Program-made: the position numbers and the translations under genes
Shown: one piece after another, positions 56,213-60,755 of the stretch
How positions within the stretch are numbered: the first letter of the stretch is position 1
How the letters are laid out: each line of letters starts with the position of its first letter
From: Candidatus Omnitrophota bacterium
Lineage (GTDB): Bacteria > Omnitrophota > Gorgyraeia > Gygaellales > Profunditerraquicolaceae
Length of the DNA: 64,000 nt
Reading direction: 5' to 3'
NCBI GenBank assembly: GCA_028712255.1
Contig: JAQTQJ010000008.1
Location: 7,773-71,772 of the forward strand
The notes under the pieces: model-generated
Told to the model about the DNA's origin: nothing
Database searches by the model: none
Seen by the model: the letters and a program-made list of their open reading frames with translations, nothing else

Positions 56213-56611
56213 ATGAAGAAGATAATCGTTTTGTTGGTATTGGTATCATTGGTTAGTGGTTGTGCATCTATACCAAGGGGTAAAATCGGGAATAGTAGAA
56301 TATATAATGCTTCTTACGATAAAGTATGGGAAGTAACGCTTAAGGCTACCGAAGGTGATATTTTAGAAGCTAGAAAAGAGAACGGATTTATTTCTTTAGC
56401 TAATCACGATCCCTATCATCCTTTCAAGTATGTTAATTTCTCTTTAGGGATAGTAGCTTTTAGATCCATCCATATGTTTGTTTCAAAAAAAGATGAAGAT
56501 CATACTGAGGTGGAGATTGATATAAAAGTTATGGGTTCATATTCAAAAGGAGTTTTGGAAAAAGAATATTTAGATAAAATTGAAACTGTATTAAATGAAC
56601 AAAGTAAATAA
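56213..56611 (+). CDS. lipoprotein, paralog family A
   Basis: 132 aa; lipobox LVSGC; shares YxxVWxxxxKAT..GDIL..E..G.IS and LEKEYLDKI motifs with ORF 60255. Confidence 0.65.
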   Translation: MKKIIVLLVLVSLVSGCASIPRGKIGNSRIYNASYDKVWEVTLKATEGDILEARKENGFISLANHDPYHPFKYVNFSLGIVAFRSIHMFVSKKDEDHTEVEIDIKVMGSYSKGVLEKEYLDKIETVLNEQSK

Positions 56612-56647
56612 AAAGCAATTAATAGTTGTTTGGAATAAGGAGGGGTT

Positions 56648-57109
56648 ATGAGGATAATCATCGCCTTCGTAATAATAGCGACTCAAGTCTTTTTTTATAA
56701 AGCTTGCTTTTCTGATATAGTGATATTAGAAGATAAAACTTTGTTTGAGGGAGAACAGATTTCAGGTAATAAGTTTAAGGTTGATGGAGGGTTTGTAATA
56801 TTTTCGAATCCTTTATGGAAAATAGTTAGTATAGAAAAAAGGATGCCAACAGATAATGAAAAGAAAAGCCTTATTGTATTCAAGGCGTCAGATTATGACA
56901 TTATATTTAATGAAAGAGGAGAATATTCTGCCCCATTGACATCATTTGAGAAGAATGTTGGTAAAAGAGTTCAGGCAGTATTTGATACATACCCAAGTTT
57001 ATCTGATAAAGCTTGTATAGAAATGGTTGCCAAGGAGTTTAAAATCGCCCCTACTATAATAGACCAAATCTTCTTAAAGGCAGCATTGAAAACAGGAGGC
57101 AAGCTATGA
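56648..57109 (+). CDS. hypothetical secreted/membrane-anchored protein
   Basis: 153 aa; N-terminal hydrophobic segment; stop overlaps next start (ATGA). Confidence 0.5.
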   Translation: MRIIIAFVIIATQVFFYKACFSDIVILEDKTLFEGEQISGNKFKVDGGFVIFSNPLWKIVSIEKRMPTDNEKKSLIVFKASDYDIIFNERGEYSAPLTSFEKNVGKRVQAVFDTYPSLSDKACIEMVAKEFKIAPTIIDQIFLKAALKTGGKL

Positions 57110-57609
57110 AAAAATGCCCTTATTGTGCAGAAGAGATACAGGATGGGGCAATTAAATGTAAACATTGTAGGGAGTTTTTAGAGAAAGTCAAGGCTACAGA
57201 ACGGATTCCAACTGGTAAGTTTTGCCCTTTATGTTCACAAGCCTATGCTTTTGAAGTAAAAAATTGTCCTAAGTGCAATACGATATTAGAAGAAGAATTA
57301 CAAGATCAAGAAGTTGAAAAAGATACAATCAGTTTATCTAAAATAGAGGAAAGCGGATGTGCTCCAGCAGTTATTTCTCTTATAATTCCTGGTACAGGAC
57401 AGATGATAAAGGGACAGGTGGGAAGAGGGATAGTTTACTTGGTATCAGCAATTGGTTTGGGAGCTATTACATGGGGTGTTCTCGCTGTTGTCGTGGGTAT
57501 ATTTAGTTGCATAGATGCAGCCACTCCCGTTTATAAATGCCCAAAATGTAAGTCAATTATTGATAAAGATGCCTTGGTTTGTAAATATTGCCAGGCTAAA
57601 TTTAGATAA
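57106..57609 (+). CDS. membrane protein with three zinc-ribbon motifs flanking a TM2-like two-helix domain
   Basis: 167 aa; CPYC..CKHC, CPLC..CPKC, CPKC..CKYC; central [45 protein letters not shown]. Confidence 0.6.
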   Translation: [167 protein letters not shown]

Positions 57610-57666
57610 ATAAGATTTAAGTTGTATTAAAATATGGGGTACACTGAGTATATTGAGGCGAGGAAA

Positions 57667-58074
57667 ATGAAGAATTTAATTTGGTTATTTTCTTTAGTAA
57701 TTTTGGTAAGCGGTTGTGCTAATCCGTATTATAGACCGTGGGCTTCAGATACTTCTCCCTATCGCCCCGAAGATGCTGAGTTTATTCCCAATTCTGCAGA
57801 AAATATAAGAGCAAAGCTTGCTAGAGAGCATGCAAAATGGAAAGAGGAGATAGACAGATACTTCAAAGAGCATCCTGAACGGTTAGCTTTTAAAGATGAA
57901 GTTATAAATAAGAAAATTCGTATTGGCATGGCTAAAGAAGAAGTTTTGTTATCTTGGGGCAAGCCAGGGGATATAAATAGGACAGTTACGCAGTATTCAA
58001 CTCACGAGCAATGGGTATATAGCAAGCAATATTTATATTTTGAAAACGGCATTCTTACTACTTGGCAAGATTAA
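57667..58074 (+). CDS. lipoprotein with BamE/SmpA-OmlA-like C-terminal domain
   Basis: lipobox LVSGC; C-terminal IRIGMAKEEVLLSWGKPGDI..WVY..YLYFENGILTTW pattern. Confidence 0.6.
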   Translation: MKNLIWLFSLVILVSGCANPYYRPWASDTSPYRPEDAEFIPNSAENIRAKLAREHAKWKEEIDRYFKEHPERLAFKDEVINKKIRIGMAKEEVLLSWGKPGDINRTVTQYSTHEQWVYSKQYLYFENGILTTWQD

Positions 58075-58133
58075 TATGCCTAGAAAATTATAGCAATCCT
58101 TTATGAATAATAGCTAAAACAAAAGGAGGAATC

Positions 58134-58866: not shown

Positions 58867-59658
58867 ATGAGTGATGAGCTAAGTAAGCTTTGGAGACCAC
58901 AAGATGATAAGGGAAATCGCTTGTATTCTGGCATTCCCAATTGTCTTCTCATGGAGATAATAAATGGGACATACAAACCTACTGAATCTCAGGTATTACT
59001 TTTTATTGCTAGAATGAGTTGTGGAATGATGAGGAGAGAACAAACAAATTACCTTGGATTAGGTGATATTGAAGCAGAAACAGGTATTAAAATACCGCAT
59101 TTGTCTAAGATAATCAATGAACTTATTAGGAAAGGTATTCTACTAAGAGGTAAGGAATCAGCCAAAAAGTATAAATACGCTATAAATCTTTATTACTATG
59201 GTCTACCAATGAAGTATTACAAAATTAGGCATAGTCTTAAAGAAATTAAGGATGATGAAGAAGTATTTGGTGTGTTAGATTACAGATTTGGTAAGCCTGT
59301 AAAAGACGAGAGGGCTATAGTTGTATATAATTCAAAGGGTTATGAGAAGCAAGAAAATGGCTATATAAAGACTGATATAAATACTGATAGAAAGATAGAT
59401 ACTACTGTTAAAAATAACTCTTATAATTCTTTAGTATCTAGTTTTATGAAAGATATTAAAGAACACGATTGTGCAGATACAATACTAAAACACATGCAGC
59501 AAATGCATGTTAATGGCTATAATCCCGATCTTATAATTTTAGCTTATGATGCTGAATGGATACGTAAGGGCTACGTAGCCCCAGATGTCGGTAAAGGCAA
59601 TATTGAAACAGCTGAAGGAAAATTTAAACATTGGCTAAAAATACGTAATAATGTTTAA
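58867..59658 (+). CDS. replication protein with phage lambda O-like N-terminal domain
   Basis: 263 aa; ESQVLLFIARMSCGMMRREQTNYLGLGDIEAETGIKIPHLSKIINELIRKGIL matches Phage_rep_O N-terminal pattern. Confidence 0.55.
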   Translation: MSDELSKLWRPQDDKGNRLYSGIPNCLLMEIINGTYKPTESQVLLFIARMSCGMMRREQTNYLGLGDIEAETGIKIPHLSKIINELIRKGILLRGKESAKKYKYAINLYYYGLPMKYYKIRHSLKEIKDDEEVFGVLDYRFGKPVKDERAIVVYNSKGYEKQENGYIKTDINTDRKIDTTVKNNSYNSLVSSFMKDIKEHDCADTILKHMQQMHVNGYNPDLIILAYDAEWIRKGYVAPDVGKGNIETAEGKFKHWLKIRNNV

Positions 59659-59738
59659 TTAATACATCAATTTGACAAAGTAAATGCATCTATTTGGAAG
59701 GAAAGTTAACAAAAGAAGACTCTTGTAATGAGGAGCGT

Positions 59739-59975
59739 ATGATAATTAAATGTAGAGAATGCAAAAAGGAAATTTCTTCAGAAGCTAATTCTTGTCCGCA
59801 TTGCGGATGTCCACAGAAACAAGAACAAGTAGGTGTGCCTAAATGTCCTACTTGTAACTCAACAGAAGTTGAAAAAATATCAGCGGGAGACAAGGCAATG
59901 ACAATGTTCCTTTGGGGTTCAGTTAAGAATTTTACTTGTACCTTTAAGTGTAGAAAATGTGGTCACAAATGGTAA
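59739..59975 (+). CDS. small double zinc-ribbon protein
   Basis: CRECKK..CPHCGC and CPTC..CRKCGH pairs. Confidence 0.5.
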   Translation: MIIKCRECKKEISSEANSCPHCGCPQKQEQVGVPKCPTCNSTEVEKISAGDKAMTMFLWGSVKNFTCTFKCRKCGHKW

Positions 59976-59994
59976 CTATCAGATAAGGGAAACT

Positions 59995-60258
59995 ATGAAT
60001 TCCATAAATATTATATATACTTGTTTGATTATTTTTGGTATTTTGTTTATTTGCAGAGAAATTATTTGCTGGTGGTTTAAAATGAATCAGGTTGTGAATC
60101 TACTTACTGAAATACGGGATATTTTACATGCTAAAAAGAATAAAGGAGAAGGATCTAAACAACCTATAGCGAAACTACAGGAAAAAGAAACAGTCATATT
60201 AAAAGATTTTTTTGGAAAACCGCATAAGGTAACTTCATTTAAGGATGAAAATAAATGA
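59995..60258 (+). CDS. small membrane-anchored hypothetical protein
   Basis: N-terminal TM IIYTCLIIFGILFICREIICWWF. Confidence 0.4.
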   Translation: MNSINIIYTCLIIFGILFICREIICWWFKMNQVVNLLTEIRDILHAKKNKGEGSKQPIAKLQEKETVILKDFFGKPHKVTSFKDENK

Positions 60259-60755
60259 AAGTAAAAAGGCTAGTTTGTTTATTAGTTTTAGTATTATCAA
60301 TGAATGGATGCGTTACAGTAACTCCCTTGATCCATAAAGAATTTGAAAGTAGCAGGACATTTCAATCTACTTATAATGAAGTCTGGCAGGCAGCGGTTAA
60401 GTCCGCTACTTCTACGGGAGATGCTATACTAGCAGCTGAGAAAGAGGGCGGGTTGATATCTTTTGATAGGAGGGTTTCTCTCAATATTAGACCAAAGGCC
60501 GACCTTGCTTTAATTCCCAAAAACCGATATTGCTGGAATCCGCACATTTCAGTTAATTTAATTCTAAAGGAATTGAATCCTGAGAAAGTGAGTGTAAGTG
60601 TCAAAGTGAGGATTACTGCTACATGCGGTGGCAATCTTGGTTTTACCTTCCCAGCACTAGCTGATTTAGGTTCTAGCGGTGAACTTGAGAAGGAGTATTT
60701 AGATAAAATACAAGATTTTCTTATTGGAGATAAATCACCGAAGGATAGTAAATAG
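60255..60755 (+). CDS. lipoprotein, paralog family A (second copy)
   Basis: 166 aa; lipobox SMNGC; shares motifs with ORF 56213. Confidence 0.65.
   Translation: MKVKRLVCLLVLVLSMNGCVTVTPLIHKEFESSRTFQSTYNEVWQAAVKSATSTGDAILAAEKEGGLISFDRRVSLNIRPKADLALIPKNRYCWNPHISVNLILKELNPEKVSVSVKVRITATCGGNLGFTFPALADLGSSGELEKEYLDKIQDFLIGDKSPKDSK

Follow-up and report, generated by a model that had tools for sequence, protein, structure and literature searches.

Envelope-associated genes of largely undescribed families are carried as accessory cargo by a small mobile element in a Candidatus Omnitrophota bacterium (NCBI assembly GCA_028712255.1, contig JAQTQJ010000008.1), and they are a credible candidate for a new system. 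The window, i.e., the whole stretch of 64,000 nucleotides (nt) that was analysed, covers positions 7,773 to 71,772 of this contig, and the cargo lies at window positions 56213-60755. The element encodes a RepO/DnaD-like initiator, an excisionase-like protein, and a tyrosine integrase. Comparison with related loci shows that its cargo is made up of what appear, from their sequences, to be exchangeable cassettes, which come from a small number of families and recombine between sister elements. From the genomic company of these genes we tentatively favour a role in the conflict with phages or rival elements. The features of the element are, from left to right:

55759..55815, + strand: truncated tRNA with acceptor 5′ strand, D arm and anticodon arm, lacking the T arm
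55996..56185, + strand: conserved non-coding leader upstream of gene A
56213..56611, + strand: A, lipoprotein of 132 amino acids (aa), predicted helix-grip fold
56648..57109, + strand: B, exported protein of 153 aa
57106..57609, + strand: C, membrane protein of 167 aa (PHC29_05090)
57667..58074, + strand: D, lipoprotein of 135 aa, lipobox LVSGC with Cys at 17
58134..58343, + strand: E, small hydrophobic membrane protein of 69 aa, last gene of the A-E block
58578-58606 and 58626-58654, + strand: two direct repeats of 29 nt (family D4), copies 93% identical
58867..59658, + strand: F, RepO/DnaD-like initiator, a backbone gene and not envelope cargo
59694..59975, + strand: G, soluble multi-zinc-ribbon protein of 93 aa
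59995..60258, + strand: H, N-terminally anchored membrane protein of 87 aa, hydrophobic segment at residues 1-30
60255..60755, + strand: I, lipoprotein of 166 aa, paralog of A
62179..62295, strand not assigned: array of about nine tandem copies of a 13-nt repeat, core ATACT (family D1)
62497..62790, + strand: HTH_17 excisionase-like gene (PF12728, E = 4e-11)
62818..63003, + strand: small MerR-type helix-turn-helix (HTH) protein (PF13411, E = 1.6e-8)
63005..64000, + strand: tyrosine integrase (PF00589, E = 3e-38), 332 residues visible, frame intact, running past the window end

Most related loci, designated here by L numbers (and individual proteins by P numbers), are short metagenomic contigs. 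L052 is a sister element, in which the F homolog is 61% and the D homolog 88% identical to those in the window. Its cargo comprises an Imm_superinfect plus zinc-ribbon protein, a polytopic membrane protein, a zinc-ribbon/transmembrane (TM) protein, D, a second D-like lipoprotein, an A-like lipoprotein, and another lipoprotein. Non-coding border segments are shared between the loci, namely window 56146-56181 and 60687-60971 with L052, and window 60897-60972 with L009, a 3.8-kilobase (kb) contig from another sample. An independent Logan assembly of the sample from which the window originates breaks at the cassette borders, and its contig L001 corresponds to window 56154-60973. The shared non-coding borders, at which the assembly also breaks, show that the loci are mosaic, and the cargo can therefore be regarded as exchangeable cassettes. 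The pool from which these are drawn comprises helix-grip lipoproteins (A and I), lipoproteins with a phage-type domain (D), zinc-ribbon membrane proteins (C and others), and, rarely, an exported protein of the B type. The A-like lipoprotein gene of L052 (2490-2912) is itself chimeric. Its N-terminal part is A-like (52% identity overall), while its 3′-end and the downstream DNA are I-like, the 3′-end of I and the DNA downstream of it being 86% identical to L052 2844-3128. This arrangement indicates recombination between the A and I paralogs.

The cargo genes ride on a small integrative, RepO-encoding element, a conclusion that is sound because the sister integrases, each encoded after an excisionase-like homolog, share a tRNA-to-integrase layout. 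Over its whole visible length, the window integrase is 50% identical to the integrase of L007 and 46% identical to that of L048, and excisionase-like homologs are found upstream of the integrases in L006/L007 and L048. These sister elements start at an intact tRNA (tRNA-Met in L006, tRNA-Thr in L048) and end with the integrase. Both hallmarks of a tyrosine-recombinase element, an integrase with its catalytic domain and an excisionase-type HTH protein, are present in the window. The first-pass annotation had placed these genes on a mobile element, and the integrase, HTH_17 excisionase-like, MerR-like and RepO-like genes together with the truncated tRNA bear this out.

The left junction of the element probably coincides with the truncated tRNA, which has an Ala-like anticodon (CGC) and scores 23.3 bits with the Rfam tRNA model, against a gathering score of 29. 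ARAGORN predicted no tRNA in the 64-kb window, and Logan contig L002, assembled from the same sample, stops within the truncated tRNA at window 55784. The tRNA was either split by the element, or the junction has decayed. No second copy of the tRNA was found in the window, and the right end of the element lies beyond it. From the truncated tRNA at about 55.8 kb to the integrase at the window end, the element measures at least 8.2 kb. Its GC content (0.33-0.36) is modestly lower than that of most of the window, which is a weak mark of the element as other stretches of the window are equally low.

The initiator F matches phrog_678 (E = 5e-6) and, below the gathering score, Pfam Phage_rep_O (E = 3e-4); its L052 homolog is itself recorded as matching Phage_rep_O (PF04492). 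The two 29-nt repeats sit in a 520-bp intergenic region upstream of F, and nearby, window 58748-58830 matches non-coding DNA of L052 with 94% identity. The 13-nt array is located between genes K and L, upstream of the excisionase and integrase genes, and its copies look like iterons or binding sites for recombination directionality.

All cargo open reading frames (ORFs) were recovered at or near the coordinates given in the first-pass annotation, which had described the span as one envelope-targeted module bracketed by two lipoproteins. This description does not hold. The span consists of the A-E gene block, which ends at 58343, the 520-bp intergenic region with its repeats, and then F-G-H-I, so there is no single module for A and I to bracket. 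Besides the membrane protein C, the products of A, B, D, E, H, and I are exported or membrane-bound, but F is the RepO/DnaD-like initiator, and G is soluble and has zinc ribbons. Nor is the 4.5-kb span conserved as a unit, since the complete A-B-C-D set recurs only in L009. There the order is a weakly similar A-like lipoprotein, B (54% identity), C (64%), two small zinc-ribbon/TM proteins, and two D-like lipoproteins. Among the smaller genes, E has a strong ribosome-binding site (AAAGGAGG, 5 nt upstream of its ATG) and a hydrophobic segment at residues 31-63, and is also called as a gene in L001. G contains CxxC motifs at residues 20, 34, 51, and 86 and no hydrophobic segment, and a homolog of its C-terminal half adjoins a C relative in L044. 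H and I overlap by ATGA at 60255-60258, which points to translational coupling.

The membrane protein C comprises two N-terminal zinc ribbons, a glycine-rich hydrophobic hairpin with a PGxGQ..KG motif (TM2/DUF6677-like), and a C-terminal zinc ribbon. Three zinc ribbons had been proposed from its translation. They are corroborated by six CxxC motifs (at residues 4, 18, 40, 54, 145, and 159) and by Pfam matches above threshold to Zn_ribbon_3 (PF13248, 45.1 bits against a cutoff of 27) and DZR (PF12773, 37.7 bits against 27.3). As to the TM2-like two-helix domain proposed alongside them, C itself gave no Pfam TM2 (PF05154) match at E <= 1; 5 of 23 aligned relatives, all of them distant, match TM2 (best E = 6e-18) and 7 of the 23 match DUF6677, so that the relationship is a remote one. 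Hydrophobicity in C is strong at residues 108-143 and weaker at 86-103, with KGQVGRG between the two segments. The family has approximately 20 full-length relatives sharing 35-64% identity with C. The triple-ribbon architecture, earlier called unusual, is real but is one variant within this family, in which the middle ribbon is optional (carried by 6/18 relatives aligned as full-length). The N-terminal zinc ribbon (57106-57174) is, as far as its distribution among sequences can tell, a promiscuous module. Most of the 903 proteins returned by the search match C only in this ribbon, many of them with ~90% protein identity, and its DNA is 76-84% conserved between unrelated genes (L003, L027, L044, L045, and L048 among the loci).

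The exported protein B belongs to a very small family, with 7 real relatives besides B itself (8 members) found in an exhaustive HMMER search of 1.8 billion representatives. A word-index search returned B alone, and no relatives were found in IMG/VR, the GTDB representative genomes, or JGI metagenomes. One further candidate, P0139 (1305 aa), proved to be a TPR-repeat false positive. The AlphaFold model of B is confident (predicted local distance difference test score, pLDDT, 89) and was built, like the other models used here, from a shallow alignment (8-11 sequences). Behind the signal helix it shows a small beta domain at residues 22-65, which an extended linker joins to a bundle of three helices at residues 99-148. 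A PDB sequence search with B gave no meaningful match, and a BFVD fold search gave nothing at E <= 0.001. The B domain would work outside the cytoplasm, because family members have either a classical signal peptide or an N-terminal membrane anchor.

The stop codon of B (TGA) overlaps the ATG of C at 57106-57109, as previously noted, and a GGAGG site lies 7 nt upstream. Whether the pair co-occurs elsewhere had been left to be checked, and the answer is mixed, as B is followed by or fused to a zinc-ribbon/TM protein in L009, L054, and P0138, but C often occurs alone. Counting the window, B is followed by a zinc-ribbon/TM protein in three loci. The B homolog of L054 has a membrane anchor, and a different zinc-ribbon/TM protein begins 2 nt after the stop codon of this homolog. 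The naturally fused protein P0138 (388 aa) combines a zinc ribbon and a TM segment with a B domain and a BamE-like domain, and the viral contigs L062 and L074 encode fusions of zinc ribbon, TM, and D domain. This translational coupling, repeated pairing, and domain fusion argue that the zinc-ribbon/TM component, the B domain, and the D-type domain act together.

The wider set of related loci points the same way for some of the components. A-like, D-like, and C-like genes are found together in at least six independent loci. In L046, a D-like lipoprotein gene is located directly upstream of a C relative, and in L045/L047 a C relative is found together with an XRE regulator and two lipoproteins, one of them distantly A-like (hhalign 94%). 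L050/L051 encode a small TM protein, followed by D-like, A-like, and another D-like lipoprotein, and A-like and D-like lipoproteins adjoin in both L050 and L052. A competing explanation is that the genes have no joint function and are unrelated small ORFans gathered in the variable region of the element. In keeping with this, the complete set recurs just once, the components are apart in most loci, and a backbone gene, F, lies within the span. Set against the coupling of B to C and of H to I, the repeated pairing of B with a zinc-ribbon/TM protein, the natural fusions, and the recurrent grouping of A-like, D-like, and C-like genes, we regard a chance gathering as improbable.

The start of D is most likely at 57667. 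Its C-terminal domain (about residues 77-135, ~60 residues) matches phrog_11546 with E = 6e-15, and by this profile match D is to be considered a real member of that domain family. The domain, for which Pfam has no model of its own, was found in 40 IMG/VR viral loci with up to 63% identity. Its anchor in phages is a lipoprotein signal, a Sec signal, choline-binding repeats, or a zinc ribbon with a TM segment. In several viral contigs the D-domain genes are located 0.1-2.5 kb from integrases, and they also occur as tandem copies; the IMG/VR contigs L069 (6001-8155), L066, and L070 each have two or three D-type-domain genes in tandem. The N-terminal half of D is specific to Omnitrophota elements. 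A PDB sequence search with D gave no meaningful match.

D had been annotated as a BamE/OmlA-like lipoprotein, an assignment that we do not uphold. D has no Pfam BamE (PF04355) match even at E <= 10, and the resemblance of its C-terminal domain to BamE or BLIP is a weak one at the level of fold. Two of four D-like proteins reach BamE at E = 9e-4 at best, below the gathering score of 23.2 bits, and the P0138 fusion reaches 17.7 bits. An hhalign comparison with an approximate E. coli BamE sequence gave 72% probability over 21 columns. Nor is D a single-copy housekeeping gene: it is element-borne, with tandem paralogs in L009, L052, and viral contigs.

The paralogy of the lipoproteins A and I, in contrast to the bracketing role once given to them, is well founded. 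Both have a lipobox (VSGC at 17 in A, MNGC at 19 in I), the two proteins align by BLASTP with E = 3e-9 as a whole and E = 6e-10 for the mature parts without signal peptides, and they share the LEKEYLD motif. A profile search returned 12 family members in all, 11 of which were aligned, and the S.G.(L)EKEYLD motif is invariant in these 11. No Pfam or NCBIfam match beyond the lipobox signal was obtained for the family, no relatives of A were found in IMG/VR, and a PDB sequence search with I gave no meaningful match. In AlphaFold models from similarly shallow alignments, A and I are predicted to adopt a helix-grip fold, and by fold comparison A resembles the N-terminal domain of BamC and the DUF3568 lipoprotein fold.

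One alternative is that the genes are lysogenic-conversion or envelope-remodelling cargo without a role in defence, altering the cell surface, outer-membrane biogenesis, or cell-cell attachment to the benefit of host or element. Omnitrophota are thought to include host-attached nanobacteria. The exported or membrane-bound nature of A, B, D, E, H, and I would fit such cargo, as would the BamC-like and DUF3568-like fold of A, the weakly BamE-like character of D-like proteins, and the A-like/D-like cluster of L050, whose surroundings are chromosomal, with Lpx genes nearby. Likeness to BamE and BamC, however, does not go beyond fold level or sub-threshold scores. With only 12 and 8 members, a patchy distribution, and shuffling between elements, the families fit conflict genes better than physiological ones, and C relatives occur in defence islands. 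Envelope remodelling is thus an unlikely explanation in our view.

The leader upstream of A has a long hairpin (56070-56146) followed by a terminator-like hairpin (56152-56171) and a T run, and its fold has a z-score of -2.9. In the unrelated contig L046, positions 6317-6507, upstream of another envelope operon, are 81% identical to it over 191 nt, and its 3′ part has a 94% match to the start of contig L052 (L052 1-36; window 56146-56181). L046 does not preserve the outer stem of the long hairpin. Scanning the whole window and the leader against Rfam gave nothing besides the truncated tRNA, exact-pattern scans for the leader in IMG/VR gave no match, and a sigma-70 promoter scan returned matches no more frequently than expected by chance. 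The ~190-nt leader may represent a novel cis-acting regulatory RNA or attenuator; alternatively, the loci may have a promoter/operator in common.

Another alternative is a transmembrane sensing module working for the element. In it, periplasmic B and D together with the lipoproteins would report the state of the envelope through the cytoplasmic ribbons of C so as to govern excision, replication, or transfer, with the conserved leader as regulatory input or output. Single-pass signalling proteins and zinc-binding anti-sigma factors have a layout of cytoplasmic zinc domain, TM segment, and periplasmic domain, to which the zinc ribbon, TM, and periplasmic domains of P0138 may be compared by analogy. 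XRE-type regulators stand beside the module in L045, L047, L048, L054, and L055, and the 190-nt leader with its terminator-like hairpin is conserved. Yet no sigma factor or output domain is found nearby, the ribbons are of the generic rubredoxin-like type (PF13248) rather than zf-HC2, and C relatives occur away from element backbones, which together make sensing quite an unlikely function.

The genomic company of these genes favours a conflict role. Five longer contigs from outside the window were examined, and in four of them recognised defence genes are found beside C relatives. In L007, a C relative lies near a type I restriction-modification system and AbiEii, just after the integrase; in L055, between PDC-M68A/B and a type IV Mrr enzyme; in L056, near Schlafen/AlbA and Fic-like genes; and in L046, beside a Dsr1-like and SIR2 pair and PDC-S63. 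In sister element L052, the Imm_superinfect (PF14373, 49 bits) plus zinc-ribbon protein is encoded by the first gene on the contig, upstream of the other cargo. The first-pass annotation had suggested superinfection exclusion or abortive infection, and this idea is plausible, having gained contextually from the defence neighbours of the C relatives and from the Imm_superinfect gene of L052. It had also stated that no named defence system fits, and a search of PADLOC-DB v2 without a match agrees with this. A literature search did not find the architecture, and proteins of these types go unmentioned in a preprint on the mobile elements of Omnitrophota.

In contig L046, the Dsr1-like protein encoded in the region 521-6304 has 1224 aa (PADLOC E = 7e-98). 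It is followed by the SIR2 domain in a protein of its own, with 389 aa, and by a PDC-S63/DUF6933 protein. The locus may be a split DSR1-type system. Its phage-like neighbours, a putative ParB-type methyltransferase and a putative terminase, are so named from a reading of their ORFs.

Several observations weigh against a conflict role. The defence-island association is drawn from five longer contexts and is not a statistical enrichment, and mobile genetic elements and hotspots hold many unrelated genes. No component matches a system model in PADLOC-DB v2, where the best hit, B against PDC-M04B, is not significant (E = 0.005, 14.8 bits). Window proteins gave no match to Imm PF14373, nor to Cor phrog_1119 beyond the signal peptide of A (E = 0.008, residues 1-37). 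C relatives occur without A, B, or D in most loci, and one is located at a chromosomal site between RuvB and QueH, with a GIY-YIG-like gene as its sole neighbour of note. No integrase lies within 8 kb of the L050 cluster. How C is placed in the membrane is uncertain, as only one segment is strongly hydrophobic and the loop between the helices is positively charged. On balance, we consider it possible, and the most attractive reading of the genomic context, that the genes are trans-envelope exclusion or defence cargo acting against phages or rival elements. A more specific proposal is that they form an undescribed, multi-component trans-envelope system against phages or other mobile elements, exchanged as cassettes among Omnitrophota elements and switched by the ~190-nt leader RNA, which we put forward as doubtful at present. 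The parts of such a system would be the zinc-ribbon/TM2-like inner-membrane protein, B as a periplasmic adaptor, and the helix-grip and BamE/BLIP-like lipoproteins.

Mechanistically, the cargo would represent accessory (moron-type) genes of the small integrative RepO-encoding element. Gene coupling and natural fusions suggest that C may be an inner-membrane protein whose zinc ribbons face the cytoplasm, that B may work on the periplasmic side, that D and probably A and I would be lipid-anchored partners, and that B, C, D, and the lipoproteins could form a complex spanning or lining the envelope. Judging from the genomic context, this complex might block entry at the envelope (superinfection exclusion); alternatively, C could be a membrane effector triggered through its cytoplasmic zinc ribbons. 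The small size of C with its glycine-rich hairpin, the adjacent lipoproteins, and the phage relationship of the element through its Rep gene would also be compatible with a lysis/egress cassette, in which C is holin-like and the lipoproteins are spanin-like. We rejected this explanation, the least likely of the alternatives and a very improbable one, on the absence of endolysin and virion genes from the visible element. C relatives also occur in non-phage chromosomal and defence contexts, and the lipoproteins are predicted to have globular helix-grip or BamE-like folds rather than the coiled-coil or proline-rich features of spanins.

Upstream of the cargo, the window contains a type IV pilus or type II secretion-like gene cluster, which was assigned by reading the translations:

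51988-53223, + strand: PilC-like gene, read from its translation
last gene ending at 55649, + strand: five pseudopilin genes, read from their translations

Two of the pseudopilin genes (53292-53684 and 53751-54143) are in tandem and encode 130-aa products that differ by only 2 residues; they represent a very recent duplication, and each has an antisense ORF artefact. The strand bias is unusually strong: over the 64 kb, every substantial gene is on the + strand, with a GC skew that stays positive from end to end.

Omnitrophota are uncultured, and their mobile elements and phage resistance have been almost unstudied. Should B-C-D(-A) prove to work as an envelope system, the known mechanisms of exclusion and defence would gain a trans-envelope type based on lipoproteins. 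Such a system would also provide a first functional handle on the common and unexplained small membrane proteins with zinc ribbons and a TM2-like region, on the phrog_11546 extracytoplasmic domain, which is present in many prophages of diderm and monoderm hosts, and on a small new family of helix-grip lipoproteins. The natural fusions supply concrete hypotheses of interaction.

Compared with known systems, the cargo shares features with several families. D-like proteins and P0138 recall the BAM lipoproteins through weak BamE matches (E = 9e-4 to 3e-3), but the window genes are element-borne, multi-copy, and patchy rather than housekeeping. Unlike BamC, A has a single domain of ~115 aa, which matches DUF3568 and Bet v 1-like folds equally well as the BamC N-terminal domain. 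A and I would resemble the DUF3568 lipoprotein Flpp3 (PDB 9nlt_B) and the Bet v 1/SRPBCC helix-grip superfamily in modelled fold only, and the C-terminal LEKEYLD helix motif sets their family apart. The C family may have in common with TM2 (PF05154, YozV/COG2314) and DUF6677 proteins a glycine-rich two-helix hydrophobic region with a short loop, and two C relatives are labelled YozV by JGI. C and its close relatives, however, carry PGxGQ..KG instead of the TM2 signature, and the family adds a conserved C-terminal zinc ribbon. We know of no function for bacterial TM2 proteins. D matches the PHROG 11546 domain (IGMTKEEV...HEQWVY...YLYFENGILT), whose members show the same range of anchors (lipoprotein, Sec, and zinc ribbon with TM); to our knowledge, this phage family has no assigned function. 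Superinfection-exclusion envelope proteins, such as T4 Imm, T5 Llp, phi80/N15 Cor, TP-J34 Ltp, and HK97 gp15, are single proteins. The cargo may be likened to them as small lipoproteins and inner-membrane proteins encoded by accessory genes close to the attachment site or integrase, with high variability between related elements, and L052 carries a true Imm_superinfect (PF14373) protein. In contrast to these, the set in the window has several genes, which include those for a zinc-ribbon component on the cytoplasmic side and for a protein devoted to the periplasm.

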